NCBI RefSeq assembly: GCF_018350175.1
Contig: NC_058368.1
Coordinates: 54,438,001 to 54,502,000, forward strand
Direction of reading: 5' to 3'
From: Felis catus
Taxonomy: Eukaryota
DNA length: 64,000 bases
Positions within the stretch are counted from its first letter, which is position 1, and each line of letters opens with the position of its first letter. The position numbers and the translations under genes were made by a program. Below, piece after piece: positions 24,330 to 51,700 of this stretch. Under the pieces are notes generated by a model that did not search any database, was not told the DNA's origin, and was given only the letters and a program-made list of their open reading frames with translations.

Positions 24330-24600
24330 TGCCCAACCTTCACTTATTTCCTAATGGCAACCAAGTTTATATTCTTTATTTATGGGTCTGTTTCTGCTTT
24401 TTTGTTTGTTTGTTTGTTTTGTTTTTTAGATTTCACATATAAGTGAAATCATTTGGGATTTGCCTTTCTCTCTCTGACTTATTTCAATTACTGTAATACC
24501 CTTGAGGTCCATCCATTTGGTTACAAATGGCAATATCTCATTCTTTTTTATGACTAACATCCAATTGTATACATATATCACCTATTTTTTATCAGTTCAT
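24330..24600 (-). mobile_element. L1 3' end fragment
   Basis: ttttagatttcacatataagtgaaatcat...ctgacttatttc...gtccatccat. Confidence 0.88.
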
Positions 24601-25528: not shown

Positions 25529-25980
25529 AAATCAGAGCTAACAAAACACTAATATATTTTCTGTTTTATAATTCTGTATCTATTTTTTATTAAATAAACT
25601 TTAGAAAAATAATAGTCCCATCTTATTAAAAGAATCCAATAAGTGAATGTGAATAGGAGAGTCCTAAAACTCTCACATAACACATTTTATAAGTTGTTTT
25701 TGTAAGAGTAAATTAAAAGGTAAATCAAAATATATATTTTCAGACAAAAAATTTAGACACAACACATCAAAACAATACAGCAAAATAAGTTATTTTCCTT
25801 TTAATTTAAATTATAGTTAATATACAGTGCGATATTGGTTTCTGTAGTAGAATTCAGTAATTCATCACTTACCTACAATACCCAGCGCTCATCACAAGTG
25901 CCCTCCTTAGTACTCATCGTCCATCTAGCCCATCTCCCACCCACCTCCCTCAGTTTGTTGTCTATGATTAAGAATCTTTT

Positions 25981-26239
25981 GGGGCACCTGGGTGGCTCGG
26001 TCGGTAAGCGTCCGACTTCGGCTCAGGTTATGATCTCAGGGTCGGTGAGTTCGAGCCCCGCGTGGGTCTCTGTGCTGACAGCTCAGAGCCTGGAGCCTGT
26101 TTCAGATTCTGTGTCTCCCTCTCTCTCTGCCCCTCCCCTGTTCATGCTCTGTCTCTCTCTGTCCCAAAAATAAATAAACGTTGAAAAAAAAATTAAAATA
26201 AATAAATAAATAAATAAACGTTAAAAAAATAAAAAAAAA
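25981..26239 (+). mobile_element. SINEC in the L1 3'UTR, with a doubled tail
   Basis: TSD aagaatctttt at 25970-25980 and 26240-26250. Confidence 0.97.
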
Positions 26240-28943
26240 AAGAATCTTTTGTGGTCTGTTTCTTTCTCTTCTCTCCCTGCCCCCACTCCACCGCTTCCAA
26301 TTTATTCATCTATTTTGTTTCTTAAGTACCACATGAGTGAAATCGTAAGGTATTTTTCTTTCTCTGATTGACTTAATTCGCTTAGCATAATAAATTTTAG
26401 CTCCATCCATGTCATTGCAAATGGTCGAGTAATATTCCATTGCGTATATATACCACTTCTTTATCCATTCATTAGTCGACAGACATTTGGGCTTTCCATA
26501 GTTTGGCTTTTGTTGATAATGCTGCTATAAACATTGGGGTGCATGTATCCCTTTGATTCTGTATTGCTGTATCCTTTAGGTAAATACTTAATAGTGCAAT
26601 TGCTGGATAATAGAGTAGTTCTATTTTTACTCTAACATTTTACTCTATTTTGAGGAACCTCTATACTGTTTTCCAGTATAAAACTTTGCACCAGTTTGCA
26701 TTCCCACCAGCAGTTCAAAAGTGTTACCTTTCTCTGCATCCTTGCCAACATCTGTTTCTTGTGTTGTTAATTTTGGTCATTCTGACAGATGTGAGGTTGT
26801 ATCTCATGATGGTTTTGATTTGCAGTTCTCTGATGACGAGTGATATTGAGCATCTTTTCATGTGTCTGTTAGCCATTTGTATGTCTTCTTTGGAGAAGTG
26901 TTTATTCATGTCTTCTGCCCATTTCTTCACTGGCTTATTTGTTTTTCTGTGTATTGAGTTTGATAAGTTCTTTATACATTTTAGATACTAATCCTTTATC
27001 AGATATGTTGTTTGCAAATATCTTCCTCCATTCATTGGCCTGCCTTTTGGTTTTGTTATTTCCTTCCCTGTGCAGAAGATTTATCTTTATAAAGTCCCAG
27101 TAGTTCATGTTTGCTTTTGTTTCCTTTGACTTCTGCAATGTTCCCAGTAAGAATTTGCTCTGGCCAAGGTCAAAGAGGTTTCTGCCCATGTTCTCCTCAA
27201 GGATTTTGATACTTTCCTGTCTCACATTTAGGTGTTTCATCCATTTTGAATTCATTTTTGTGTATGGTATTAAAAAGCGGTCCAGTTTCATTCTTCTGCA
27301 TGTCACCATCCAGTTTTCCCAACACCATTTGTTGAAGAGACTGTTTTCAATGGGACATTCTTTCCTGCTTTGTTGAAGATTAGTTGACTGTAGAGTTGTG
27401 GGTCCATTTCTGGCTTTTTCATTCTGTTCCATGGATCTATGTGTCTGTTTTTGTTCCAGTACCATACTGTCTTCATGACTACAGGTTTGTAATATAGCTT
27501 GAAACCTGGAATTGTCATGCCTCCAGTTTTGTTTTTCGTTTTCAGAATTGATTTGGCTATTTGGGGTCTTTTGTAGTTCCATATAAATTTTAGGATTGTT
27601 TGTTCTAGCTCCACAAATATGCTGGTAATATTTTGATAGGGATTGCATTAAATATGTCGATTGCTTTGGGAAGTATAGACATTTTAACAATGTTTATTAT
27701 TCCAATCCACGAGCATGGAATGCTTTTCCATTTCATTGTGTCGTCTTCAATTTCTTTCCTAACTGTTCTATAGTTTTCAGAGTACAATTCTTTTACCTCT
27801 TTAGTTAGTCTTATTCCTAGGTATCTTATGGTCTGGGGTGCATTTGTAAATGGGATCGATTTCTTGATTTCTTTTTCTGCTGCTTTACTATTGTATATGC
27901 AGCTATACATTCTCCTGTATATGTAGCAGATTTCTGCATGTTGATTTTGTATCCTACAACTTTGCTGAACTCATGTATTAGTTCTAGCAATTTTTTGGTG
28001 GAAACTTTCAAGTTTTCTATATAGAGTGTCATGTTGTCTGCAGGGAGTGAAAGTTTGACTTCTTCTTTACTGATATCTTTTACTTCTTTTTGTTGTCTGA
28101 TTGCTCAGGCTAAGGCTTCCAGTACTATCTTAAACATAATGGTGAGAGTGGGCATCCTTGTCTTGTTCTTGACTGTAGGGGAAAGGCTCTCACTTCTGCC
28201 CCATTGAGGATGATATTAGCTGTGTGTCTTCTGTATATGGCCTTAACCATGTTGAGGTATGTTCATTTATGCCTACTTTCTTGAGGGTTTTTATCAAGAA
28301 TGGATGCTGTATTTTGTCAAATGTTTTTTTCTGCATCTATTGACAGGATCATAAAGTTTTTATCCTTTCTTTTATTAATAGGTGTATCACATGGATTGAT
28401 TTGCAAATAGAGAAACTTCCCTGCAGCCCAGGAATAAATCCCACTTGATCATGGTGAATAATTCTTTTAAAGTACTATTGAATTTGATTTGCTAGTATGC
28501 TGTTGAGAACTTTTGCATCCATGTTCATCAGGGATACTGGCCTGCAATTCTCGTTTTTAATAGGGTCTTTGTCTGGTTTTGGAATCAAGGTAATGCTAGC
28601 TTCATAGAATGAGTTTAGAAATTTTCCTTCCATTTCTATTGAAATACTTTGAGCAGAATAGGTATTAACTCTGCTTTAAATGTCTGGTAGAATTCCCCTG
28701 GGAAGCCATCTGGCCCAGCACTCTTGTTTGCTGGGGAATTTTTGATTGCTGAGTCCATTTTTTTGCTGGTTATGGGTATGTTCAAATTTTCTATTTCTTA
28801 CTGTTCCAGTTTTGTTAGTTTGTAAGTTTCTAGGAATTTGTGCATTTCTTCCAGATTGCCCAGTTTGTTGGCATATAATTTTTCATAGCATTCTCTTATA
28901 ATTGTCTGTATTTCACTGGTGTTGTTGTGATCTCTCCTCTTTC

Positions 28944-29143
28944 TTTCTTTCTTTTTTAAATGTTTATTTCCTTTCGAGGGGGCGAGGAGGGGCAGAGAGA
29001 GAGGGGAGACACGGAATCCGAAGCAAGCTCCAGGCTCCAAGGTGTCAGCACAGAGCCTGACCTGGGGCTCAAACCCACAAACCATGAGATCATGACTTGA
29101 GCCAAAGTCAGACGCTTAACCAACTGAGCCACCCAGGCACCCC
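28944..29143 (-). mobile_element. SINEC inside L1 ORF2
   Basis: TSD tgatc(t/c)ctcctctttc. Confidence 0.95.
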
Positions 29144-30131
29144 ATGATCCCTCCTCTTTCATTCATAATTTTATCTATTTGGGTCCTTTCTCTTTTGTTT
29201 TTGGTGAGGCTAGCTAGGGGTTTATCAATTTTGTTAATTCTTTCAAAGAACCAACCCTTAGTTTCATTGATCTGTTCTACTGCTTTTTTGTTTGTTCATT
29301 TTGTTTTGTTTTCCTTGGTTTGTTTCTATATTGTTTATTTCTGCTCTAATCTTTATTATTTCCCTTCTTATGCTGGCTTTCAGCTTTATTTGCTGTTCCT
29401 TTTCTAGCTCTTTTAGGTGTAAGATTAGGTTGTGTATTTGGGACCTTTCTTGCTCCTTGAGATAGTTCTGAATTGCAATATACTTCCCTTTAGGACCACC
29501 TTTGCTGCATCCCATAGATTTTGGAATGTTGTGTTTTAATTTTCATTTGCTTCGATGTATTTTTTAAATTTCTTCTTTAATTTCCTGGTTAACCCATTCA
29601 TTCTTTAGTAGCATGTTCTTTATCTTTCATGTATTTGAGGGATTTCCAAATTTTTTCTTGTGGTTGACTTCAAGCTTCATAGTGTTGTGGTCTAAACATA
29701 TGCATGCTATGATCTTGATATTTTTGTACTAGTTGAGGGTTGATTTGTGACTCAGTATGTGATCTGTTCTGGAGAATATTCCACGTGCACTTGAAAAGAA
29801 TGTGTATTCTGCTGCCTTAGGATGAAATGTTCTGGATATATCTGTTAAGTTCATCCGGTATAGTGTGTCATTCAAAGCCATTGTTTCCTTGTTATTTTTT
29901 GCTTAGATGATCTGTTCATCATTGTAAGTGGCCTGTTAAAGCCCCTTATAGTTATTGTATTATTATAGTAAGTTTATGTTTTTTATGAACTGATTTATAT
30001 ATTTGGGCATCTCCAAATTGGGGACATAAATATTTACAATTGTTAGATATTCTTGATGGATAGATCCCTTAATTATGATATAATGTCCTTTATCTTTTGT
30101 TACAACCTTTGTTTTAGAATCTAGTTTGTAT

Positions 30132-30366
30132 GGGGATACCTGGGTGGCTCAGTTGGCTAAGCATCTGACTCTTGATTTTGGCTCAGGTGATGATCTCACA
30201 GTTCATGAGATGGACCCTCATGTGGGGTTCTGCATTTACAGTGAAGGACCTGCTTGGGATTCCCATTCTCTATTCCTCTATTTCTGCCCCTCCCTCTCTC
30301 TCTCTTTCTCAAAACTAAATGAAAATAAATAAACATTTAAAAATTAAATAAATAAAAAATTAAATA
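30132..30366 (+). mobile_element. SINEC inside the L1 ORF2 endonuclease region
   Basis: TSD aatctagt(t/g)tgt. Confidence 0.93.
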
Positions 30367-30683
30367 AAATCTAGTGTGTCTGATATGTATGGCTACTCTG
30401 GCTTTCTTTTGATGTCCATTAGCATGATAGATGGTTCTCCATGCTCTCACTTTCAACTCACCTAAAATGAGTCTCTAGTAGAGATGGATCTTGTTTATTT
30501 TTTTAAAAATCATTTCTGATACCCTATGTCTTTTGATTGGAGCATTTAGTCCACTTACATTCCAAGTGATTGAAAGGTATTAATTTAGTGTGTGTTACCT
30601 GTAGAGTTGGTATTTCTGGTGATGTTCTCTGGTCCTTTATAGTCTTTGTTGCTTTGGTCTTTTTTTTGTTTGTTTTTTTCCAC

Positions 30684-31588
30684 TTAAAGAATCACCCTTA
30701 AAATTTCTTGCAGGGTTGGTTTAGTGTTCACAAACTCCATTTCTTTTCTTTCTTTATTGTTTTTCTTTTGCCTGCAAAACTCTTTATCTCTCCTATTCTG
30801 AATGACAGCCTTGCTGGATAAAGAATTCTTGGCTACAGATTTTTCCCATTCAGCATATTTAATATTTCCTGCCACTCCTTTCTAGCCTGACATATTTCTG
30901 TGAACAGAGCTGTTGTGAACCTGATCTGTCTTCTATGGTAGGTTAGGACTTTTTTCCCTTGCTGCTGTCAGGATTCTTTCCTTGCCTGTGTATTTTGTGC
31001 ATTTGACTTTGATATGCCTTGGTAATGATCAGCTTTTGTTGAATATAATGGGAGTTCTCTGTGCTTCTTCAATTTTGATGTCTGTATCCTTCCCCAGGTT
31101 AGGGTAGTTTTCAGCTATAATTTGTTTGAATTAACCTTCTGCCTGTTTTTCTCTCTTTGTCTTCTGGGACTCCTACGATACTAATATTATTATGTTTTAA
31201 TCAGTTACTGAATTCAATACATCTGCCTTCGTGGTCCATGGCCTCTCTTTCCCTCTTCTTTTCAGCTTCATTAGTTTCCATATTTTTATCTTCTCTATCA
31301 CTGATTTGTTCTTCTGCTTTGTCCATCCTTGTTTTTATGGCCTCCATTTCAGATTGCATCTCAGGTATAGTATTTTTAATTTCAGCCTGACTAGATTTTT
31401 GTTCTTTTATCTCTGCAGTAAGGGATACTCTAATGTCACCTATGCTTTTATCAAGCCCAGCTAATATCCTTATAATTGTTATTTTAAATTCTAGCTCAGA
31501 CCATCTTACCTATATCTGCATTGATTAAGTATCTGGCCATCATTTCTTCCTGTTCTTTCTTTTGGGGTGAATTCCTCTGTCTTGTCAT
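30684..31588 (-). pseudogene. Disrupted L1 ORF1
   Basis: Begins MTRQRNSPQKKEQEE at 31588; ends EFVNTKPTLQEILRVIL. Confidence 0.92.
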
Positions 31589-33159
31589 TTTGGAGAGAAA
31601 GAAAAAATCAGAATAAAATAAAAATGTAAGAATCAAAGAAAAAAATTTTAAATAAAATAAAATACATAATGGAAGCTAGATCCTAGGTGTGTTTTGGTCT
31701 GCTTGCTACAAGAAGCTTGGTAGAAAAAAGGTAGAAAGAAAGAAAAGAAAGGAAGGAAAAAAATCTAAAATTAAAAGTATATATAAAATTAAAAAATAAA
31801 AAAAATAATAAATCGCTGTTTCTGTATAAAACAAACAAAACATAAACAAATAAAACAAAACAAAACAAAAACAAAAAGAAACCAACAAACAAACAAACCC
31901 CAAAGGAGCTGAAGCTTTGCAGCACTCTATGATCTATGGACTTGGTATGGGCAAGAGGCTTGTGCTGGTCTTCTGGAGGAGGAGCCTGCTGCTCTGATTC
32001 TCAGGTGTAGTTGTCCTAGTGGGGATGTGCCTGCAAGGCTCAAGGTGGTGGGGTTTGGTGTAGCGGCTCTGCTCTCCACTTGGTGGCACTGCTTAGCTCA
32101 CAGAGGGGGATCAAGCTGCCGGGTGCGGGGAGAAAATGGCTTTGCCGGGTTCTCTCATCTTGGGAGTGGGAGATACATGCTACCCCTCTTCAGTGAGCCC
32201 TAACAGACATACAAAAAGCGACCCTGCCTGTATCCCTGGTTTCAGTAAGATTCCCGCCTTCACATTGTCTGTGTCTGAGCTGTCAGCCTGCCAAATGGCA
32301 GAGCACTCCTGTGTTTTAACTCAGGTTGGGCTGTTTCAAAACTCCACACTTCAGAGACCCCTGTGGCACAGACTGGCACTGGTCATCTGAGGGAGGGTCA
32401 CCCTGTGTTGTGGCCACTGCCGGCTTGTCATAGGTTACAGCCAAGAGACTATGTAGTGGATCAGTTTATGGTAAATTACAACACACAGCTGGTGTCAGGG
32501 ATTGCCGCACTCATCCATCATCTTTGTTCTTACAATGGTGAGCAGGACAGCTGGATGGTGCCCTTGTCCAAGGAGAGGTTGTATCACCTCTCCCAAATGC
32601 ATTCCATGCAGGGGAACCACTTCTCCTCGTGTAACCTTGGGGATTCTCAGGCTGCCAGTTGCTGGGGACCAGCTCTGCTGTCCCACCAAAGCACGGCTTA
32701 CCTACCCAGCATGAACTTGGCAATGTCTCAGACCTCCAAAACTTCAGAATCCAAGCTCTGCTGTTTATAGAAAACTGGCGGTATTATAACCCTCTCTTTT
32801 TTCCCTGTGAAAGATTTTGGGGAGTGGTTTTCTTGTGCAGTGCTCTGCATGTGTTTTTGCTTCCTCCCCTGCCTCCCCCGCCCCCCCTGCACTTCTCTCT
32901 CTCCTTCTCTCTTGCTATTCCCACTGTGGTCAGGGCTCCCTCCCCTGGGAAGTGCTGGAGGTTCTTTTCTCTTAGAAACTACACAGTTCCTACCTTCCAC
33001 AGGTCCTTTTTCTCATTTGTAGAGGTGCAGCTTTGTTCTCTAAGACTTCCAATTGATTTCTTGGGTGTTCAGAATGATTTGATATTTATTTAGCTGTGTT
33101 CCAGGGAAGAGGCTAGCTTAGGGTCGCCCTACCTCTCTGCCATCATACCTCCAACCAGC

Positions 33160-34355
33160 CAGCAAAAGAAGTTCTAAGAGAAGCCTGTAGCTATAAACAC
33201 GTATACAAGACAAAAACATCTCAATAAACTACCCAACATTACATCTCAAAATATAGAAAAAGAAGAACAAATAAAACCCAGAATTAACAGAAGGAAGGAG
33301 ATAACAAACACTAAGAAATAAGTGGAATACAGAATAGGAAAGATTAATGAAACTAAGAGTTGGTTCTTTGAAAATATAAACAAAGTTGGCAAACTTTTAG
33401 CCAGACTAATCAAGAAAAAAAGAGAGAGGCTGAATCATGAAGAAATGGAAAATCTGAACAGATTAATGACAAGTAAGGAGATTAAATCAATAATCAAAAT
33501 TCTCTCACCAAAGAAAAGTCCATGAACAGATGGTTTCTTAGATAAATTCTACCAAATATTTAAAGAGTAAATACTAATTCTCAAACTCTTACCAAAATGC
33601 GAAGAGGGAAAAGCCCTCATAAACTCATTCTATGAGGCCACCATTATCCTATACCAAAGCCAGACAGGGACACTCCAAGAAAAGAATACTATAGGTCAAT
33701 ATCCCCAATGATTATAGATGAAAAAGTTCTCAGTAAAATATTAGCTAACAGCACATTAAAAGGATCATACATTATGATCAAGTGGAATTCATCCCTGGGA
33801 TACAAGGATGGTTCAACACATGAAAATCAACAAATACATCATATTAATAGAATGAAAATAAAATCTATATACTTGTCTTGATAGGTGCAAAAAAAGCATT
33901 TGACAAAATACAACATATTTTCATGATAAAAACTCATAACAAATTGGGTATAGAAACAATATAACTCAACATAATAAAAGTCTTATATGACAAACCCAAA
34001 GCTAATGTCATACCTAACCCTGAAAGGTTAAAATATTTTCCTATAAGATCAGGAACAAGACAAGGGCACTAACTCTTATCAATTTTATTCAATACAGTAA
34101 AGGAATTCCTAGCCAGAAGAATGAGGCCAAAAAAAAAAAAAAAAAAGAAAGAAAGAAATAAAAGGCATCCATATTGAAAAGGAAAAAGTAAAACTGTCTT
34201 TTTTCAGATGACATGATTTTATAAAGTCCTAGACTCCACCAAAAAGTTAGAACTAATCAGTAATACTCAGTAAAGTTGCAGGATATAAAATCAATATTCA
34301 GAAATTAGTTGCATTTCTATACTTAAAAATCAAATGTCTAAAAAAGAAATTAAGG
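33160..34355 (+). mobile_element. Older L1 ORF2 fragment (host of the full-length L1)
   Basis: Track 33322 KINETKSWFFENINKVGKLLARLIKKKRE; ttttcagatgacatgatt (FADD-like); a short 5' piece remains at about 25750-25791. Confidence 0.92.
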
Positions 34356-38929: not shown

Positions 38930-39938
38930 GTCCCAACTTCAAGGAAATAGTATCAACATATATAAAAATGATATTTTTAAAAATGGTTTTACTCCCAAAT
39001 TAATTTTTTGAGACTGTCGTAACTTTGACACTAAAACAGACTAGAATAGTATAAAAAAGGAAACATATAGGCCAATTTCTCTTATGAAAGAAAAAGTTTT
39101 AAACAGCAACAAACCAAATCAATACTGTTTAAAAAAAAAAGATGATTCAGCATGAACAAACTTCATTTATCCCAGAAATGCAACCCTTGGATTAATGTTA
39201 AAACATTGATTCCTATAAGTCACCACAAATGTCAAGACTACTTAGTGTCCCAATATTTGTTTTTTCTTCTTCCACATAGATACAAATTTTGCCAAGAATT
39301 TGCATTTCTAGAAATACAGTATTTTTTTAAATTTATTTAAAATTTTTTAAATGTGAGTATGTACTTTCCCAAAACAGCACACTAATTTCCCAGGCTTCTT
39401 TGCAAATATGTCCTGCCTTGGGTCTAAATTCTGGCCAAAAGAATGTCAGATGGTGTGATGCATTTAACTTCTGTCAGTTCTCCTTAAATAAAAAGGATTT
39501 CACCTTTTTTCCCTTTTTTGCTTGCAAAAAGGTTGCTATCAATACAACACCCTTATAAGCACAACGAGGAATGGAGGCACAAGCAGAAAGAATCTGGAAC
39601 AGATTCTATACCATACTTGCATTCTTCATGTCTGGTTTATTAAATAAGAAAGAAAGAAACTTTTATCTTCTTTAAGCCATTCTTACTTGAGATTCATTTA
39701 CAGTTATTGAATCTACCTACTGTGTAATACACCACATTAATAGCATAAAGAAGAAAACCCATATGAATGTCTCAGATGAGGGAAAAGCATTTAAAAATGT
39801 TCAACATTGATTCATTAAATATCAAATTAGGGATAGAAGAAAATTTCATTCATCTAGTAAAAGGCATAAAATCATCTGCAACATCTACAGTAAATATTAT
39901 TAATTAAGATGAAATGATGCCAGCATTCTTATTAAGAA
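38930..39938 (+). mobile_element. Ancient L1 (L1ME-like) ORF2 fragment split by an LTR
   Basis: tataggccaatttctcttatgaa; atttatcccagaaatgcaa; gaaaagcatttaaaaatgttcaaca. Confidence 0.75.
39230..39731 (+). mobile_element. MLT1-type (ERVL-MaLR) solo LTR
   Basis: atttcccaggcttctttgca...ctaaattctggccaa...aaacttttatcttctttaagcca...taataca. Confidence 0.75.
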
Positions 39939-40400
39939 TGTGGTGGATTAAAGAGGGCCATGAATTGTTTGATATCCTTCCTATCAAGAATCGGGTTCTA
40001 TGTCTCCTGTCCTTGAATCTTGGTAGGCTCTTTGAAGAATATGGCAAAGTGAAACTGCACCACTTTCTGCGCTGAAGCTTTAAGAAACCAGCAGCTTCTT
40101 TTTCCAATACTGTGCAACTCTCTGTCTGGGTGCCCCGGTCACGACGTACGAAGTTGAACTACATTGCGAACAGCTTGCTGAAGAGGGCATGTACCCACAC
40201 TCAGATTGGTAGTCCCACATAAGCTCAGCTGCTCATTCATTCCTGCCAAGACTCCATGTGAGCGAAGCCATTTTGGAAATTCCAGACCTGCCCATCTGCT
40301 AGCAGAACATTAATGAGCAGTCACAGCTAAAATACATGGAACAAAGAATTGCTCAAATTCTTAATACACTTTTAAGAATAACAGAAAAAGTGGTTTTATT
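39939..40400 (+). mobile_element. MLT1G/H-like LTR, 3' end missing
   Basis: Starts tgtggtggattaaagagggcca...ccttgaatct; catgtgagcgaagccattttgga. Confidence 0.85.
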
Positions 40401-40414
40401 CTCTAATTATGAAA

Positions 40415-41610
40415 AAAAATAGACTTTAGTTTCTAGCACGGTTTTAGATTCACCAAAAATTTGGGCAGATAGTATGGAGAGTTCCCATATACCCCTTCCT
40501 CATAGAGTTTCCCCTGTTAGTAACATGCTTTAGTGTGGTGTTTGTTACAATTAATTAATGAGCCCATCAGTAAGCCCATAACGTTCATAGTTTATATTAA
40601 GGCTATTTGTGTTGTATAGTTGTATAGGTCTTGACAAGTACATAATGCCATGTACCCACTATGGAGATACCATGGTTTCACAGCCCTAAAAATCCCCTGT
40701 ATTTTTTCATGTTTACCCTGTTACCCTCCAACTCTTGGAAACCATGAATCTTTTCCTGCCTCTAGAGTTTTGCCTTTTCCAGAATGTCCTATCATTGGAG
40801 TAATACAATACATGGCATTTTCAGACTTACTTCTTTTATTTTGCAATATGCATTTAAGGGTTTCTCCATGTCTTTTCATGGATTGATAGCTCATTTCTTT
40901 TAATCACTGAATGTTTCATTGTATGGGTATACCACAATTTTCCATTCACCAATTGAAGGGCATTTTCTTTGATTCTAGATTTCGGAGATTATAAATAGAT
41001 CTACTGTAAACATTGTGTGAAGGTTTTGGGTCGACATAAGTTTTCAGTTCAGTTGGGTAAATACCTAAGATGTAATAGTTGGTACATATGGTAGGATTAT
41101 GTTTAGTTTTGAAAGAAACTGCCAAGCTATCAGTTGCAAAGACTGAATTCCATCGTGAATTCTCACCATTAGTGAATGATAATTCCTGTTGCTCTCATCT
41201 TCACAAGAATTTGGAGGTGTCAGTTTTTGTATTTTAGTTATTGTCAGTGTTTTGCCTTTTAGCCATTCTAATAGGTGTGTAGTGATAGTTTTTTTTTAAT
41301 TCGAAATTCCCTAATGATATATGATGTTGAAGATCTTTTCATAGGCCTATTTACCATCTATATTATACATCTTCTTTGATGAGGTGTTTCTTCTGTCCAT
41401 ATTTAAATGGGGTTGCTTGTTTTCTTATATTTAAATTGTAAGAATTATTTATATATTTTTGTCAAAGGTATAGAGTCTGTGTCTAAATTGTTTTTTTTTC
41501 TATTCTTTTTTTCCATGTAGATGTAACATTGTTCTAGCACAATTTGTTAAAAAGACAATCCTTTCTCCATTGAATTGTCTTTGCTTATTTATAAAAATCA
41601 GGCTACTCTG
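40415..41610 (-). mobile_element. L1MC-like 3' end
   Basis: aatagacttt...ggttttagattcac...gagagttcccatatacccc followed by the antisense ORF2 C-terminus. Confidence 0.85.
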
Positions 41611-43156
41611 GCCTTGCATCTAGAAACTAGAGACTCACAGGTGGAACGTATGGGCTGTGTGAAGCTAAATGCAGGAGGGTATAATTTTATCAACCAACAC
41701 ATGACACAGAACATCTGTGTGTAAAATCCTGTGGAAATGAAGCATTTTTTGGTCTCAAAGAACATTCAGGATAGGATCATTTTGGCTACTGTGCTGAGAA
41801 TATACTGACAGAGGGAAGGGGGGAAGAGGGAGAAGGAGGAAGTATGAACAAATTATGAAGTTATTGCAAAATTTGTCCATATCATCTAAAATGCCTAATT
41901 TTGGCTCAAGACAAGCCTGATGTAGGAAGACTCTTAATTCACTCCTCCATGGAACATGCCAAATTATGCCTATTTATAGAACAACTCCGCCTGAAAAACT
42001 GAGGGCTGACTGAACAGCCACCAAACAACCAAAGATAGAGCGAGTGGCAAGAGCACAACAAGAGAGATGGAGACATGCCATGGCTTAAAATGGTAACAGG
42101 CATATGCAATCACACCTCCAGCCAGCCAGCAAAAGTCACCAAGCATGCACAGTCTGCACAGGGGACACTATCCATGAGACCACTCCTTCAGCTTTAGGAG
42201 AGGTGGCCATTTCACCCAATCCATAGAAACAAACACAGAAAAGCCAAACAAAATGGACATACAGAGGAATATGCTCCAAAAGAAAGAACAACAACAACCA
42301 CACCTCAGAAAAAAAACTAAATGAAAGAGAAATAAACTGATAAAGAGTTTAAAGCAATGACCATAGAGATATTCATTAGGCTGGAGAAAAGAATGGAAGA
42401 ACTCAGTGAGACCTTCAATTAAGAGATAGAAAATATTAAAAAGATCCAACTATGGCCAAAGAATACAATAACTGAAATTAAAAAAAAACACAGTAGAGGG
42501 AATCAACATTAGGTTAGCAAGTGCAGAAGGATGTGTAAATGATTTGGAAGACAGGGTAATGGAAAGAAAACAAACTGAAGAGTAAAAAGAAAAAAACTTT
42601 TAAAAATGAGAATGAGAATGGATTAACAGATCTCTTGGACAACAGCAGGTGAACACATGTTCATATTATAGGAGTCCCAGAAGAAGAAGAGAGAGAAAAG
42701 TAGAGTAAGCTTATCTGAAGAAATAATAACTGAAAATTTCCCTAGCCAGGGAGGGAAATAGATATCCAAGTCCAAGAAGAATAGAAAGTTAAAAACAAGG
42801 TGAACCCAAGGAGGACCACACCATGGCCCATAATTAAAATGTTAAAGGTTAAAGAGAAAAAGAAAATCTTAAAAGCAGCAAGAGAAATAAAAAGTTACCT
42901 CCAGGAGAAAACATATAAGGCTCTTAGCTGATTTTTCGGCAGAAACGCTGCAAGTCTGAAGGGAGTGTCATAATATATTCAAAGAGCTGAAAGGGGGGGG
43001 GGAGGAAACCCAAAAACCTAAGACCAAGAATACTCTACCTAGCAAGGTTACCATTCAGATGTGAAGGACAAATAAGGAGTTTCCCAGACAAACAAAAGAT
43101 AAAGGAGTTTATCACCACTAAACCAGGCTTACAATAAATGGTAAAGGGACTTCTTT

Positions 43157-43375
43157 TTAAAAAAAAATTTTGAAAGTTTTATTTATTTGAGAGAGTGAGA
43201 AAGCACACACACAAGCAGGGGAGGGGCAGATAGAAGGAGAAACAGAATCCCAAGCAGGCTCTGTACCATCAGCACAGAGCCTGATGTAGGGCTCGAACTG
43301 ACAAATTGTGAGATCATTGACCTGAGCTGAGATTAAGAGTTGGACGCTTCACCAACTGCACCATGCAGACACCCC
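43157..43375 (-). mobile_element. Older SINEC at the end of L1 ORF1
   Basis: TSD aa(a/g)gggacttcttt. Confidence 0.94.
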
Positions 43376-43389
43376 AAGGGGACTTCTTT

Positions 43390-43618
43390 TTTTTTTTTTA
43401 ATTTTTTTTCAATGTTTTTATTTTTTTATTTTTGGGACAGAGAGAGACAGAGCATGAACGGGGGAGGGGCAGAGAGAGAGGGAGACACAGAATCGGAAAC
43501 AGGCTCCAGGCTCCGAGCCATCAGCCCAGAGCCCGACGCGGGGCTGGAACTCCCAGACCGCGAGATCATGACCTGGCTGAAGTCGGGCGCTTAACCGACT
43601 GCGCCACCCAGGCGCCCC
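43390..43618 (-). mobile_element. Young SINEC_Fc inserted into the TSD of the previous SINE
   Basis: CpG-intact; TSD caaggggacttcttt at 43375-43389 and 43619-43633. Confidence 0.98.
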
Positions 43619-44070
43619 CAAGGGGACTTCTTTAAGTGGAAAAGAAATGGCCATAATTAGACATAAAATAATATGAATAAAAAGATGTAAAATATAACAA
43701 CATATACATAAAATGTGGAGAAGGGACTGAAAAAGGAAGAGAAGGGGAAAAAATAAGAAGAAAGATTTTTTCCTTTTTCATTTGTTTTGTTTTTAAGAAT
43801 ATGTTTGCACTTAAATGACTATCACACTATTTATTTGTACTGCTATTTATTTGTGATGTTATATATGGACCTCATGATAACCACACACCCAAAATCTATG
43901 ATAGATACACAAAAAATAAAGAGAAAGAAAGCCAAACAAAACACTATAAATACTCATTGATCACAAAGAAAGAGAGTGAGAGAAAAAGAAAGGAACTAAG
44001 AACTATGAAATGACCAGAAAACAAATTTTTAAATTGGCAATGAGTACATACCTGTTGATAATTATTTACC

Positions 44071-44290
44071 TTTTTTAAATTCTTTTTTAAATGTTTATTT
44101 TTTTTGGGAGAGGGAGAGATAGAGTGTGAGCAGGGGAGGGGCAGAGAGAGAGGGAGACACAGGTCTGAAGCAGGCTCCAGGCTCTGAGCTATTAGCACAG
44201 AGCCTGATGCAGGGCTCAAACTCATGAACCATGAGATCATGACCTGAGCTGAAGTCAGATGCTTAACCAAGTGAGCCACACAGGCACCTC
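44071..44290 (-). mobile_element. SINEC at the start of L1 ORF2
   Basis: Flanks share gataatta(t/c)tt. Confidence 0.95.
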
Positions 44291-44554
44291 TATGGATAAT
44301 TACTTTATATGTAAATGGCCTTAATGTTCCAATCAAAAGATGGAGAGTGGCAGAATGGCTTTAAAAACAAACAAAAACCCAAGACCCATCTGTATGCTGT
44401 CTAGAAGAGACTCACCTCAAACCTAAACACATATACAACTGAAAGTGAAGGGATGAAAAAACATTCACTATGCAAATGGAGGCAAAAAAAAAAAAAAAAA
44501 AAGCCAAGGTAGTAATACTGGTATCAGACAAAATAGACTTTAAAACAAGAGACA

Positions 44555-44768
44555 GGGGCGCCTGGGTGGCTCAGTCGGTTAAGCGTCCAAGTTCAGCTCA
44601 GGTCATGATCTCGCGGTCCGTGAGTTCGAGCCCCGCGTAGGGCTCTGTGCTGACCGCTCAGAGCCTGGAGCCTGTCTCGGATTCTGTGTCTCCCTCTCTA
44701 TCTGACCCTCCCCCATTCATGCTCTGTCTCTCTCTGCCTCAAAAATAAATAAACGTTAAAAAAAATTT
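44555..44768 (+). mobile_element. Young CpG-rich SINEC
   Basis: Perfect TSD aaaacaagagaca at 44542-44554 and 44769-44781. Confidence 0.97.
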
Positions 44769-45194
44769 AAAACAAGAGACAAAGACATTGCACAATGATA
44801 AATGGATCAATCCAACAAAAAGATATAATAATTATAAACATGATAGCACCCAAATTCTTAAAGCAGTTAATAACAAACATAAAGGAAGTAAGCCATAGTA
44901 ATATAATAACAGTAAGGGACTTTAACACTTCATTTACATTAATGGGTAGATCACCCAGACAGAAAATCAATAAGGAAAAAGTATCTTTGAATGACACATT
45001 GGATCAGGTGGACATAACAGATATATACAGAATATTTCATCCCAAACAATGGGATAAACATTCTTTTCAACCACACATGGAACATTTTTCAGAATAGATC
45101 ACATATTAGTCATAAAATAAGCCTCAATAAATTCAAGACAATTGAAATTATACTGTACATCTTTTCTGATGGTAGTATGAAATTAGAAATAAAT

Positions 45195-45197
45195 CAC

Positions 45198-45228
<31 letters not shown>
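45195..45228. repeat. (CA)n microsatellite inside L1 ORF2
   Basis: cacacacgcacacaca... Confidence 0.95.
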
Positions 45229-46212
45229 ACACCAACATGTGCAGACTAAATATTATAGTAAACAATCAATGTATAGTAAATACATGGAGACAAATGAAAA
45301 AGAACACTACAGTCCAAAATCTCTGGAACCCAGCAAAGGCAGTTTGAAGAGGGAAGTATAGCAATACAGGATTACCTCAAGAAACAAGATAAACAATCTA
45401 ACCTTCCACCTAAAGGAACTATACAAAGCCCAAGGTAGGTAGAAGAAAGGAAATAATAAAGATCAGAGAAGGAATACATGACATAGAGACTAAAAAACAA
45501 TAGAAAAAAATCAATGAAGCCAAGAGTTGGTTCTTTGAAAAGGTAAACAAAATAGACAAACCTTAGCCAGATGCATCAAGAAAAAAAGGAAAATGACCCA
45601 AATACATAAAATCAGAAATGAGAGAGGAGAAGTAATAAATGACACCACAGAAATACAAAAGATTGTAAGATATTACTATGACAAATATATGCCAACAGAC
45701 TAGACAAACTAGAAGAAGTGGATAAATTCCTAGAAACATACAATCTTCCAAAACCGAACACCAATTACAAGTAACAAAATTAAATTGATAATCAAAAAAA
45801 CTACCAAAAATTAAAAGCCCAGGATTGGACAGATTCACAAATGATTTCTACCAGACATTTAAAAAGAGTTAACACCCATTCTCCTCAAACTATTCTAAAA
45901 AAAAACTAGAAGAGGAAGAAAAGCTTCCAAATATATTCTATGAAACCAGCATTACCCTGATGCCAAAACCAAAGTTTCCACAAAAAAAAAAAAGAAAGAC
46001 AAAAGAAAAAAAATTACAGGCCAATATCCCTGATGAACATAGATGCAAAATTCCTCAACACAATATTAGTAAACCACATACAACAATACATTGAAAAGAT
46101 CATTCACCATGATCAGATGGGATTTATTTCTGGGATGCAAGGATGGTTCAATATTTACAAATCAGTGTCACATACCACATCAACAAAACAAAGGATAGAA
46201 ATCATATGATCA

Positions 46213-46397
46213 GGGTTCCTGCATGGCTCAGCTGGTTAAGTATCTGACTCTTGATTATGGCTCAGGTCATGACCTCACAGTCATGAGATCAAGCCTCCAC
46301 ACTGGTCCCCATGCTGGGTATGGAGCCTGCTTAAGTTTCTCTCTCTCCCTCTCCCTATGCCCCTCTCGTGCTTGTATGCATGCTCTATCTCTCAAAA
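46213..46397 (+). mobile_element. SINEC with a very short tail
   Basis: Perfect TSD aaatcatatgatca at 46199-46212 and 46398-46411. Confidence 0.95.
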
Positions 46398-48902
46398 AAA
46401 TCATATGATCATCTCAATAGATGTAGAAATAGCATTTGACATGATTCGGTATCCATTCATGATAAAAACTCTCAACAAAATGAGAGAATGTACCTCGACA
46501 CAATAAAGACCATATATAAAAAACCCACAGCTTACATCACTGTCAATAGTGAAAAACTGAAAAAGAACAGAAAAATAAATAAATACCATTCATATTGGTA
46601 AAGAAGTTACACTGTCACTATATATAGATGACCTGATATTATATACAGAAAATCCTAAAGACTCCATTAAAAAAAACTACTAAAAGTAATAAAAAAATTC
46701 AGTAAAGTGACAGGATACAAAATTAATACCCAGAAATTGGTAGCGTTTTTATACACTAATAGCAATGATGCAGAAATAAAATTAAAAAAAAAACTACAAT
46801 TTACAACTGCACCAAATATTATAAAATACCTAGGAATAAACTTAACCAAAGAGGTAAAAGATTTGTACTCTGAAAACTATAAAACACTGGTGAAAGTAAT
46901 TGTCTTCAATTACACACAAATGACACAAACAAATGGAAAGATACTTCATGCTCATAGACTGGAATAATTAATATTGTCAAAATGTACATAGTACCCAAAG
47001 AAATCTACATATTCACTGAAATCCTTATCAAAATACTAAAAGCATTTTCCACAAAATTGGAACAATTAATACTAAAATTTGTATGGAACCACAAAGATCA
47101 TATACAATCAAAGCAATCTGAAGAAAGAAGAATAGCTAAAGGTATCACAATTGCAGATTTCAAGACATACCACCAAGCTACAGTAATCAAAACAGTATGG
47201 TACTGGCACAAAAAATAGACACATAGATCAATGCAACATAATAGAGACCCCAGAAATAAACTCACATTTCTATGATCAATTAATCTATGACAAAGGAGGC
47301 CAGAATATACAATGGGGAGAAGGTAGGCTTTTCAGTAAATGGTGCTGGGAAAACTGGACAGCTACATGCAAAAGAATAAAAAAGGACTACTTTCTAACAC
47401 CATTCACAAAAATAAACTCAAAATAGATTAAAGACCTAAATGTGTGACCTGAAACCATCAAAATTCTAGAAGATAACACAGGAAGTAATTTCTCTAACAT
47501 CAGTCATAGCAACATTTTTCTAGACATGTCACCTAAGGCAAGGGAAACAGAAACAAAAATAAACTATTGAGTCTACATAAAAAGCTTCTGCACAGCAAAG
47601 GGAACAATCAAGAAAACAAAAAGACAATTTACTGAATGCAAGAAGATATTTGCAAATGGTATATGCAACGAAGGGTTAATATCCAAATTATTTAAAGATC
47701 TTACACAACTCAACACCAAACAAACCCAAATAATCTAATTAAAATAGGCAGGGACCTGAACAGACATTTCTCCAAAGAATACATACAGATTGTGTACAGA
47801 CACGTGGAAGTATCATATTCAACATCACTAATCATCAGGGAAATGCAAATCAAAACCACAATGAGCTATCACCTCACTGTGGTCAAAATGGCTAGTATCA
47901 AAACCACAAGAAAGAAGTGTTGGCAAGGATGTGGAGAAAAACCCTCCTGCATTGTTGGTTGGAGGGCAAATGGTTGCAGCCACTGTGGAAAACAGTATGG
48001 AGGTTCCTCAAAAAATTAAAAATAGAAACACCATATGATCCAATAATTCAACTATTGGGTACTTACCCAGGGAAAATGAAAACACTAACTCAAAAAGATA
48101 TATGTACTCTTATTTTTATTGCAACATTATTTACATAGCCAAGACATGAAAGCAACCTAGATGTTCATCAAGACAAATGGATAAGGAAACTGTGGCATAT
48201 ATACACAAAAAATATTACACAGCCATGAAAAAGGAGGAGATTGTGCCATTTCAGACAACATGGAGGATCTAGAGGGTATTATGGTAAGTAAAATAAATCA
48301 GACTGAGAAAGACAGATACCGTATGATTGTAATCATAAATAGAATCTAAAAAAATTAATCAACAAAAAGCAGAATCAGAACTATAAATACAGAGACTCAT
48401 CTGATGGTTGCCAGAGAGGAGGAGGAGTGGGGGGTTGGGAAAAATGGATGAAGGAGAGAAGGACAGTCAATGATACTGTAATAGTGATGTAATGGGGCAC
48501 ATGGTAGTTATACTCACAGTGAACCTAGCATAATGTATAAACTTGTCAAATCACTAAAATATATATCTGAAACTGATGTAACATTGTGTCTCAATTATAC
48601 CCAAGTAAAAAACACTTAAAAAGAAAAATCGGGCTACTTTGAGTAACACCAGAGAGCATGATTGCTGGATTGTATGGTAAAAGTGTTTTCAGTTTTGTAA
48701 GAAACTATCAAATGTCTTACAAAGTGGCTGTACCATTTTGCATTCTCACCAGCAATGAATGAGACTTCTTGTTGTACATCCTTTCCAGTGTTTGGTACTG
48801 TTAACCTTTTATGTTTATAACTTTTATATGATTCTATTTTCTTTCATCTCTTAGTCTATCAATTATATTTTTAAAACTTTTAGGCAGTTACTCCAGATTT
48901 CT

Positions 48903-48904
<2 letters not shown>

Positions 48905-48947
<43 letters not shown>
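48905..48947. repeat. Perfect (AT)n microsatellite
   Basis: About 21 units. Confidence 0.97.
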
Positions 48948-48949
<2 letters not shown>

Positions 48950-49231
48950 CTAACCCTACCTATTGCAATGTAGCTACCTTACAATAGAGTATTTCCAATT
49001 CCTCTCTTCCCTCACTTAACACATTGCTGTTATTTATTTTATTTATACATATGCTACAATCACCTAACACAGAGTTGCTATTTCTCTAAGCAGCTGTCTT
49101 GAAGATCATTAAGAATAAGAAACATAAACATTTTAATTTTATTTATTCCATCTCTGATGCTCTTTTCTTTACATCAATCCAAGTTTCTGACCTATGTAAT
49201 TTTCCTTCTCCCTAAAGAACTTCTTTTATCT

Positions 49232-49435
49232 GGGGCACCAGATAAAAGACTGGGTGGCTCAGTCTGTTGAGAGTCCGACTTTGGCTCACATCATGATCTC
49301 TTGTTCACAAGTTGAGCCCCCATGTCGGGTCTCTGCTGTCAGTGAAGGGTCTGCTTCGGATCCTCTGTCCCCCTCTCTCTGCCTGTCTCCTCCTTGTGCT
49401 CTCTCCTCCTCAAAAATAAGTACACGTTAAAAAAG
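49232..49435 (+). mobile_element. SINEC with an inverted insertion in its head
   Basis: ggggcacc[agataaaagac]tgggtggctc; decayed TSD aaagaa(c/t)ttctt(t/c)ta. Confidence 0.93.
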
Positions 49436-50819
49436 AAAGAATTTCTTCTACCATTTCTTGCAAGGCAGTTCTGCTGGCAGAAACTTTTCTTAGTTGTTGT
49501 TTGAGAAAGCCTTTATTTCTCCTTCACTTTTGAAGAATAATTTCACTAGATGCAGAATTCTGGATTCACTTTTTTCTTTCTTTCAACATTATATTTTACT
49601 CCACCCTCTTCTTGCTGGCATCATTTCTGATCTTTTCCTTGTTCCTCTAAGTAAAGTATCCCTCCTGGCCCAGTATCCCTCCTGACTCCTTTTAGGATTT
49701 ATTTGCACTTTGAATGTATGTGTCTAGGTGCAGATTTTTTGATATTTATTATGCTTGGTGTTCTTAGAGTGCCAGGTCTGTGGTTAGGTGACTGTCATTA
49801 ATTTTGAAAAATTCTCATCCATTATTACTTCAAATATTTTTTGTGCTTCTTTCTTTTCCTTGTTCTGCCTCTATGCACATATATTACACTTTTGTCACAT
49901 AGTTCTTGGATATTATATTCCTTTTTCTCATTTTTTATATAAATTTTAGTTTGGAAAGTTTCTATTGATATATAGTTCAGCAAATTGATTCTTTATTCAT
50001 CTCTGCCCAGTCTACTAAAGAGATTACCAAAGGCATTTTTTTTTGTTACTGTTACACAATTTTTTATGTCTAGCTTTTCTTTTCTTTCTTAGTGTTTCCA
50101 TCCTTCTGCTTTCATTAAATCTGTTCTTACATGCAGGATAATTTTTCTTGGGGGTTCTTAATATGTTAATCATAGTTATTTTAAAATTCCTATCTGAGGA
50201 TTCAAAAAAAATAGCTTTAACGGATTCAAAGATGTTTGCTTTGTCTTCACAGACTGTTTTTACTTGCCTTTTTAACATGTTATGTAAATTTTTGTTGAAA
50301 GCTAGACACGAAGTATCGAATAATAGGAACTGTGGTAATAGGGCTTTTGGTCAGGCTTCATGTGACTCTGGCTGGGAACTAAGCTGTTTCATGCACAATA
50401 TTGCTGTAGATGCCAGAGGCCTTGGTTTCTTATAGTTTCCATGTTTTTGTTTGTTTGTTTTCTTTTGTTTGTTTATTTGTTTGCTTTTGTCCCCTACTGT
50501 CCTTGGGTTTCCTGAAGAACTCCTTCTAAAATAGAGTCTGTATTTTATACCCTCTAAAAGTTGCAATCCACTGTTGTACTAAAGCCCCATTATTGTCTCC
50601 AATATCTTGGGGTTTGGGTAAGCTGATCTTAGCTCTGACTATACATATTTACCTCTCTCTCCAGATCTTGAGGTGGTAGTTTGCCTTGTGACCTCAATTC
50701 TCTTGAGGGACCTATGAAAAATCATTGATTTTGACTTTGTTCATTTCTTTATTTCACTTGTAACAGTGGGAGTTATGACTTCTAAGCTCTTTACATGTTG
50801 GAGCTGATAAGAGAAATCT

Positions 50820-51700
50820 ACCCAGGAGATTTTTTTGAAGTCAGCATAATTTTGACATCAAAATAGACTAGCGCAGCATGCAGAAGGAAACCTATAAGCC
50901 AAAGTGGCCCACAAAAATTGTGAAATATAATAAAATAGTTACTTTAAGGTACTATTTTTTTTTATTTATTTTTGAGACAGAGACAGAGCATGAGCAGGAG
51001 AGAGGCAGAGAGAGAGGGAGACACAGAATCTGAAACAGGCTCCAGGCTCTGAGCTGTCAGCACAGAGCCTGACGCGGGGCTCGAACTCACAGAGTGTGAG
51101 ATCATGACCTGAGATGAAGTCAGACACTTAACTGACTGAGCCACCAAGGCACCCCTAAGCCATTATGTTTTATAGTAGTTTGTTATAAAGCAATAAACAA
51201 CCAAAATACCAATACACAAAAGTATGTTACTGGAATTATAAAGAGAGTTTGGTAAAATTGCTGGATACAAATCAATATGGAAAATCAATTGATCAATCAT
51301 ACATCAGTTGTCATCAATACATCAACTGTAATAAGAAAATGTGACTAGAAAATATTTAAGATAGCAAGAAAACATAAAGAACGTTCAGATAAATCTAATG
51401 AAAGATAGTTAAGCCTTTTACAAAAAAAACATTAAAACTTTACTTAAAGTTAATAATGAAGACCTAACGATGGAGAAATATATCATTAAACATGAAAACT
51501 CAGTATTCTAAAGATATCAATCTCTTCAAATTGGCCCATAGAATTAATAAAGCCCCCTGAAGTTGCCTAGTAAATTCTATAATAAGAGTGAAAGAACAAT
51601 AAGAAAAAGACCTTATTCCTGTGAAAGAAGGAATAGTTTTGGAGGTCTTCTCGCTTGACTTGGAAGAGGTGGTGACTTTTTATATTTATTATTTGATAAT
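50820..51700 (+). mobile_element. Ancient L1ME-like ORF2 fragments
   Basis: gagagtttggtaaaattgctggatacaaatcaatat; gaagacctaa; aaactcagtattctaaagatatcaa. Confidence 0.72.
50955..51155 (-). mobile_element. Carnivore SINE
   Basis: Typical body ending ctgagccaccaaggcacccc. Confidence 0.96.

Follow-up and report, generated by a model that had tools for sequence, protein, structure and literature searches.

Non-L1 DNA enclosed with an old LINE-1 by one target-site duplication in the cat genome: a candidate 5' transduction

The locus described here lies in a 64-kb stretch of the cat genome (the window, meaning the whole of the DNA analysed) and holds a full-length, decayed L1 whose target-site duplication (TSD) encloses a further segment of DNA in front of the element (Table 1). 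The ORF2 is colinear with the minus-strand L1 of the window at 65-72% identity, and one of its seven open stretches passed the cutoff with an RVT_1 match at 45961-46206 (E 1.7e-10). Each of the five SINEs inside the L1 is flanked by a short direct repeat of its own, and these nested insertions set a minimum age for the L1 insertion. The element is old and dead and has no present coding function.

Table 1. Features of the L1 insertion and its surroundings (positions in the window)
Feature	Position	Strand	Remarks
Left host	40413..41610	-	3' part of older antisense L1; 4 of 5 tiles above all 50 shuffles
TSD, left copy	41593..41610	+	18 bp, at end of left host
Non-L1 segment inside duplication	41611..41902	+	292 bp, 39% GC
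Candidate left TSD of donor L1 (inferred)	41888..41902	+	15 bp, from CT/AAAA site to L1 start
L1 5'UTR	41903..42252	+	350 bp
ORF1	42253..43140	+	broken, many stops and frameshifts; end approximate
Nested SINEs (five)	43151-43375, 43384-43620, 44058-44292, 44554-44775, 46213-46400
ORF2	44298..48226	+	broken; limits approximate
L1 3' end and decayed A-rich tail	48227..48623	+	tail 48607-48623
TSD, right copy	48624..48641	+	18 bp
Right host	48637..50818	-	about 180 bp repeating part of left host (65% identity), then antisense L1 ORF1-region

The initial annotation placed the beginning of the L1 5'UTR only at about 41903, and comparison with two other L1s of the window, both from other subfamilies, puts it at 41900-41903. 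A GTAGG word at 41922 recurs 22 and 20 nt past the 5' ends of these two control L1s, and homology with the L1 at 14241 begins at the same position 41922 (99 of 167 positions identical, with none of 200 shuffles as good). The TSDs of the controls, picked by eye, match at 10/11 and 13/14, and their distances to the L1 5' ends are 0 and 7 bp. Since the TSD ends at 41610 and the L1 begins at 41900-41903, 292 bp of non-L1 DNA are left within the duplication, as had been claimed for 41611-41902. The segment has a lower GC content than the UTRs of the three L1s (47-48%) and no credible L1 match in the window scans; a weak competing match joins 41805-41902 to an old L1 ORF1 piece near 13700 (63/100, the top of 418 tiles by one point). 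The part at about 41775-41880 may resemble antisense L2; L2-like stretches of the window were absent from the top tiles, and scans with the segment gave low-complexity or weak matches only. A second copy of 41611-41902 was not found within the 64-kb window, the 41 kb upstream included, and templated capture from a local source in the window was therefore rejected. The segment had no Rfam match at E up to 5 and no match among phage records.

The two TSD copies are identical at 16 of 18 positions, and the matching ends abruptly at both edges. Both mismatches are transitions: A/G at 41600/48631, a case of CpG decay, and C/T at 41608/48639. Of the roughly 128,000 18-mers that the two strands of the window contain, only the left copy matched the right one at 16/18; none was found at 15 or 17 and two reached 14/18. 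A loose null (match +1, mismatch -2, any start within 30 bp of the tail, 1008-bp tiles) reached the observed repeat score in 5 of 104 tiles. A composition-aware log-odds null, built after that result on half-overlapping tiles of 320, 500 and 1000 bp, did not reach the observed 24.5 bits in any of 772, 488 and 238 tiles, respectively; the top tile scored 20.6 bits, and a Gumbel fit gives P = 0.00055-0.00094. The 18-bp duplication thus exceeds chance expectation, and the near-perfect repeat with two transitions, as first described, stands at P of about 0.0005-0.001 under the composition-aware null.

The positions of the two copies are also those of a target-primed insertion. The left one directly follows a nick-like site, TTTAT/AAAAA, which differs by one base from the endonuclease consensus TTTT/AA given in PMC13756887, and the right one directly follows the decayed A-rich tail, so that the placement given in the initial annotation was correct at both ends. 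Right-host homology begins at 48637-48639 and so leaves out about 13 bases at the beginning of the right copy, which nevertheless match the end of the left host. A TSD directly adjoining the L1 start was rejected as an alternative, as the best candidate scored 9.2 bits, under the null median of 12.2 bits.

The insertion is nested in older L1 sequence. The left host could be aligned over 40693-41616, its likeness trailing 6 bp past the end of the TSD; its final 280 bp, down to 40413, we take to be L1 as well. In the right host, the match to L1 surpassed all 50 shuffles in four of nine tiles; one more match of that strength was a SINE, and the 5' end presumably lies near 50818. The right flank scores poorly as a continuation of the left host (157 of 200 shuffles do equally well); the flanks do not rejoin as one host, which implies an extra rearrangement junction at the end of the TSD. 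Farther out, a sense L1 is colinear across the whole block, with 39720-39917 corresponding to 28394-28190 and 51227-51556 to 27990-27639 of the minus-strand L1, and with about 200 bp missing at the join. Between these halves, 40366-40409 and 50821-50902 map end to end on 38956-39075 with a 9-bp overlap, although the left half is weakly matched, leading 846 tiles by just 2 points. The LTR-like halves 39920-40365 and 50900-51210, which have no reference in the window, may join as well but are left out of the evidence for nesting. With the region nested in older L1 sequence, the segment is probably not a piece of ancestral DNA that was already there, although the flanks fail to rejoin. The proposal that segment and L1 came in by a single target-primed event is supported by the nick motif and the tail as well as by the TSD statistics and the nesting.

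Foreign 5' DNA copied together with an L1 is an uncommon, well-described by-product of LINE-1 activity, and we somewhat favour a 5' transduction by read-through transcription as the origin of the segment. A donor L1 elsewhere in the genome would have been transcribed from a site some 290 nt or more in front of its 5' end. The resulting RNA, running from the donor flank through the donor's left TSD and the L1 to poly(A), would have been bound by ORF2p, and complete target-primed reverse transcription at the T/AAAA site inside the old antisense L1 would have left the 18-bp TSD around the whole read-through copy, which would then have decayed and gained its five SINEs. Such a single event supposes that segment and L1 would have been contiguous and in the same orientation in the donor. 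A second T/AAAA site, 15 bp before the L1 start, would fit the left TSD of the donor itself; a site of this type is found 7-20 bp upstream of 6.8% of window positions. The earlier suggestion that the segment is the upstream flank of a donor is therefore plausible and is favoured by this site, but a chimera would give the same picture. The suggestion that the upstream promoter was active in germline or early embryo fared less well: the timing is true of any inherited insertion and is uninformative on the promoter.

A single insertion could also have used two templates, the 292 bp coming from a separate RNA or exposed DNA, with template switching, trans-splicing or twin priming linking them to the full-length L1; we consider this conceivable but unlikely. 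Its source would be a sequence without an adjoining L1, or the segment would be inverted, and it explains the TSD and the nesting equally well, with precedents described in human (10.1101/2025.02.02.635956). Between the TSD (41597-41609) and the L1 start (41909-41921) there is an imperfect inverted repeat of 11/13, a match reached by 36 of 3098 null tiles (about 1%), which could point to twin priming and to that extent speaks against 5' transduction; it was, however, spotted post hoc among nine listed pairs. Two templates would also leave the T/AAAA site 15 bp before the L1 start unpredicted, and the segment had neither a source copy within the window, its 41 kb upstream included, nor an Rfam match. 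If the TSD were instead a chance repeat, the L1 would have landed at about 41888-41902 beside 292 bp that were present already, either as an old stretch separating two L1 fragments or as filler left by a rearrangement of the host; decay, or a deletion at the target site, would have removed the true TSD of the L1. The T/AAAA at 41888 is where an in-place TSD would be expected to start, and TSD calls for old L1s from a single genome are less reliable (10.1101/2025.02.02.635956); the failure of the flanks to rejoin and the result of the loose null count for this explanation and against 5' transduction. Nevertheless we judge it improbable, for a match of P about 0.001, whose two mismatches are both transitions, would have to be accidental, the fit of 41885-41902 to the sequence after the tail is poor (global score 12 vs 30), and the nesting puts the segment within older L1 sequence.

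It is scarcely credible that the segment is a regular 5' extension, a newly recruited leader, of a small L1 subfamily and not a one-off tag. The 5'UTR is unusually short, so a replacement leader would be useful; but the segment is AT-richer than the three UTRs, and the two control L1s, which belong to other subfamilies, begin at the homologous position with their TSDs adjacent. Just as remote is a history of two events, in which an ordinary L1 with its TSD later received a 292-bp patch precisely where the TSD adjoins the L1 start: the TSD and the nesting are formally compatible with it, but the patch would have had to land no more than a few bases from that boundary, and a search for a direct repeat flanking the patch found none.

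The known systems closest to 5' transduction are the partnered 5' transductions, such as those of the human 8q21.11 source element (PMC12350158; PMC6035798), in which non-L1 DNA likewise precedes the L1 in one insertion and is explained by transcription from an upstream promoter. Those in PMC12350158 are recent, have a traced source and show splicing between a lncRNA exon and the L1, whereas the cat insertion is ancient, untraced and, if the candidate donor TSD is what it seems, unspliced at the L1 junction. The initial annotation called 5' transductions much rarer than 3' ones; the direction is right but the disparity is milder, as 82.2% of partnered L1 transductions are 3' and so about 18% are 5' in PMC12350158. 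The human mRNA/lncRNA-LINE-1 5' chimeras of Law and Burns (10.1101/2025.02.02.635956) resemble the cat copy in being old, near full-length L1s with 25-1000 bp of extra 5' sequence, one TSD, an EN motif and poly(A); the completeness of the cat L1 at its 5' end is shared with most of them. Their 17 cases map to gene exons. Of these, 15 have no L1 at the source gene, a point contrary to 5' transduction, and trans-splicing was suggested for these chimeras because most lack an L1 at the source.

A narrow literature search over titles and the beginnings of abstracts, covering few subscription journals, did not find felid L1 5' transductions. The pattern for the start of the L1 5'UTR had no match in viral or metagenome contigs, and the SINE motif pattern none in viral contigs. 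The UTR-end pattern, absent from viral contigs, had one metagenome and one bacterial-genome match, both rejected as L1 relatives since the likeness was confined to the pattern and is due to chance. If the segment were traced, it would identify a long-dead source L1 and would indicate that read-through from outside promoters mobilised L1s in the carnivore germline, a process so far documented mostly in human; a single dead copy alone changes little.

The 5'UTR itself is short, 350 bp as compared to 1124 bp in the L1 at 14241 and about 1560 bp in the other control, both of other subfamilies. It keeps a first and a last block that resemble the corresponding ends of the 1124-bp UTR, which gives it the look of an internally shortened UTR. 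With a UTR this short, the donor may have lost much of its internal promoter and relied on an upstream one. A far bolder proposal, to which we give little credence, is that the donor was a carnivore L1 lacking about 800 bp of internal promoter, whose mobility depended on a start site in the flank upstream of it, with the 292-bp leader and short UTR recurring in several independent insertions. If true, this would be a counterpart of RAP1GDS1-L1PA2, ancient and outside primates, and would show L1 lineages in the act of recruiting new promoters; a short 5'UTR and leader common to sister insertions would bear on L1 promoter swapping. RAP1GDS1-L1PA2, a human SpIRE rescued by a host promoter (10.1101/2025.02.02.635956; PMC5860796), carries upstream sequence at its 5' end like the cat L1 and has an internally shortened 5'UTR, as the cat L1 seems to have; its deletion is a mapped splice, its source and RNA are known and there are two independent insertions. 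In contrast, the apparent shortening of the cat L1 is seen against other subfamilies only and in a single copy. As to GT...AG splice sites, an AAG/GTA word stands near the homologous place in both control UTRs and is absent from the 350-bp copy, which seems to retain bases beyond that position.

We find fairly well supported the notion that the composite L1 insertion at 41593-48641 is real and works like a 5' transduction: it shows three of the defining features of such an event and is one more member of an already known kind of L1 event. An old plus-strand LINE-1 (the studied L1) and the DNA at its 5' side (the segment) are bracketed by an 18-bp direct repeat, the target site duplication (TSD). 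The window is mammalian and repeat-rich, and its SINEs resemble, we assume, carnivore tRNA-derived SINEs. The tests drew on the window itself and on the literature.

Parts of the composite insertion and the two other L1s used as controls (positions within the window)
Feature	Position	Strand	Description
Left TSD copy	41593-41610		18 bp
Segment	41611-41902		292 bp, 39% GC
Studied L1	41903-48623	+	6721 bp including five nested SINEs
Decayed tail	48607-48623		
Right TSD copy	48624-48641		18 bp
Control L1	14241-16355	+	intact 5' start, 10/11 TSD, ~2.1 kb
Minus-strand L1 (control)	25778-33173	-	full-length, decayed, 13/14 TSD, UTR ~1560 bp

The near-perfect repeat described in the initial annotation was confirmed by direct comparison: the copies agree at 16 of 18 positions, the two mismatches are transitions, with a CpG affected in one of them, and the identity stops sharply at both edges. 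Among ~128,000 18-mers on both strands of the window the left copy alone scores 16, the runners-up being two at 14. The T|AAAA nick-like site proposed for the left copy was found as TTTAT|AAAAA, one base from the consensus nick site in PMC13756887, and the A tail said to precede the right copy is present, decayed, directly before it. Under a loose null, with the right-copy start free within 30 bp of the A-rich tail, the observed score was equalled in 5 of 104 tiles; this score rewards A runs, so a log-odds score allowing for base composition was built next. With it none of 772, 488 and 238 overlapping tiles attained the observed score (Gumbel P = 0.00055-0.00094), and P ~0.001 is taken as the fair figure because this null was devised once the loose one had been run. 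The duplication is very probably real, since a prior of ~1% stands against a chance match of ~0.1% that needs loss of the true TSD too.

Both ORFs of the studied L1 are broken; an RVT_1 match above its cutoff was obtained in one of seven open stretches scanned, and ORF2 aligns in order along the minus-strand L1 with 65-72% identity. The 5'UTR start, expected near 41903, was placed at 41900-41903 by comparison with the controls, whose preserved 5' ends lie at 14241 (+) and 33152 (-): the word GTAGG lies 22 and 20 nt inside these and at 41922 in the studied L1, where the alignment to the L1 at 14241 also opens. The control TSDs, picked by eye, lie 0 bp (10/11 TSD) and 7 bp (13/14 TSD) away from the L1 start. 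Nothing comparable adjoins the start of the studied L1, where the best match has 9.2 bits and the null median is 12.2. The control at 14241 stops in the region past ORF1, is nested in an older L1 and possibly derives from a prematurely polyadenylated L1 RNA. A further piece, at 24355-24555, has likeness to an L1 3' end, and at 43140-43635 two SINEs entered the same site in succession, so that a short target repeat is present there in triplicate.

The host DNA was used in place of an outgroup. The left host, an antisense L1 of greater age (alignment in 4 of 5 tiles, never equalled in 50 shuffles), spans the left TSD copy and fades out at 41616. The right flank does not carry on from it, 157 of 200 shuffles scoring no lower: the right host resumes ~550 bp back in host coordinates, with 65% identity to 41053 onward, and further on is antisense ORF1-region L1 (4 of 9 tiles). 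The empty site thus has a rearrangement junction at the TSD end, an unexplained coincidence that counts against the tidy reading. Right-host homology does not set in before 48637-48639. The ~13 bases that open the right copy are thus left-host sequence found again past the tail, which is what a TSD predicts. An outer, old sense L1 is colinear over the whole block, 39720-39917 and 51227-51556 following one another on the minus-strand L1, the join lacking ~200 bp. Likewise, 40366-40409 (weak, leading 846 tiles by only 2 points) and 50821-50902 (strong, 57/82) adjoin each other on 38956-39075, overlapping by 9 bp. If the joins hold, 40410-50820 would be a single inserted block, and the 292 bp could not be ancestral flank. 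The pieces at 40366-40409 and 50821-50902 seem to be the two parts of a ~120-bp L1 ORF2 stretch duplicated locally from 38956-39075, with more likeness to it than to other L1s of the window. Also, 48637-48815 against 41053-41240 is an old ~180-bp internal duplication of the host L1 (65% identity), whose junction skips most of the host ORF2.

Non-L1 DNA lies inside the TSD, as the initial annotation held. The segment has a lower GC than the three UTRs (47-48%), and ~41775-41880 of it may be L2, as the initial annotation proposed; there is also a weak alternative match to an old L1 ORF1 piece in the window. No second copy was found in the window by BLAST or two tiling scans (418 and 356 tiles), whose top matches were purine-rich low-complexity sequence, and Rfam gave no match.

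The weights given to the readings are our own inference. Read-through 5' transduction is somewhat better than an even bet. Among partnered L1 transductions from 1,019 human genomes, 82.2% (350) are 3' (PMC12350158); by our arithmetic the 5' ones would number ~76, or ~1.4% of 5,311 insertions, with a single source behind 22. None appeared in an older short-read study (PMC4862182), and 5' RACE located >100 L1 start sites >100 nt upstream (PMC2768975). A two-template chimera or capture is rather unlikely; foldback inversions and co-inserted nearby pre-mRNA are reported in bioRxiv 10.1101/2022.05.18.492429. An imperfect inverted repeat (11/13) pairs TSD bases 41597-41609 with the first L1 bases, 41909-41921; equalled in 36 of 3098 null tiles (~1%), it may have arisen by chance, or it may mark twin priming; under twin priming the segment would lie inverted with respect to the DNA it came from. 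The segment's final 15 bp begin at CT|AAAA (41888), where the left TSD of the donor, the presumed source L1, would sit; a site of this kind 7-20 bp upstream exists for just 6.8% of window positions. It speaks for DNA that adjoined an L1 rather than for a junction between two RNAs, and would also be expected with an L1 inserted in place. A chance repeat is improbable and requires in addition that the studied L1 lost its true TSD; the 292 bp could be filler that arose when the host itself was rearranged, and then the 18-mer must be chance. That the segment is a subfamily leader, or a patch inserted later, we consider highly improbable in both cases.

The UTR of the studied L1 is short, with 350 bp from its start to the ORF1 ATG; those of the controls have 1124 and ~1560 bp. 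The opening block of the 350-bp UTR aligns to the beginning of the 1124-bp one, and the closing block to its end. Because the controls belong to different subfamilies, with ~60% identity here, the shortness could stem from splicing, a genomic deletion or a family trait. A splice-donor-like word near the UTR junction occurs in both controls and is absent from the studied L1, which seems to keep bases past its position. In human L1, intra-UTR splicing reduces promoter activity (PMC5860796), and such a spliced element, rescued by the RAP1GDS1 promoter, gave 5'-transduced copies (Law and Burns preprint); by analogy it could model a promoter-rescued donor of this short-UTR L1, with low probability. 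The 5' junction of the minus-strand L1 (33138-33168) matches the UTR of the studied L1 (42105-42135) at 28 of 31 positions (E 3e-6), possibly by chance. In a phage-like metagenome contig (L001) a pattern-matching word occurs twice (136-170 and 388-420), each time just before an ATG; it is like a repeated promoter or ribosome-binding motif and is unrelated to the studied L1.
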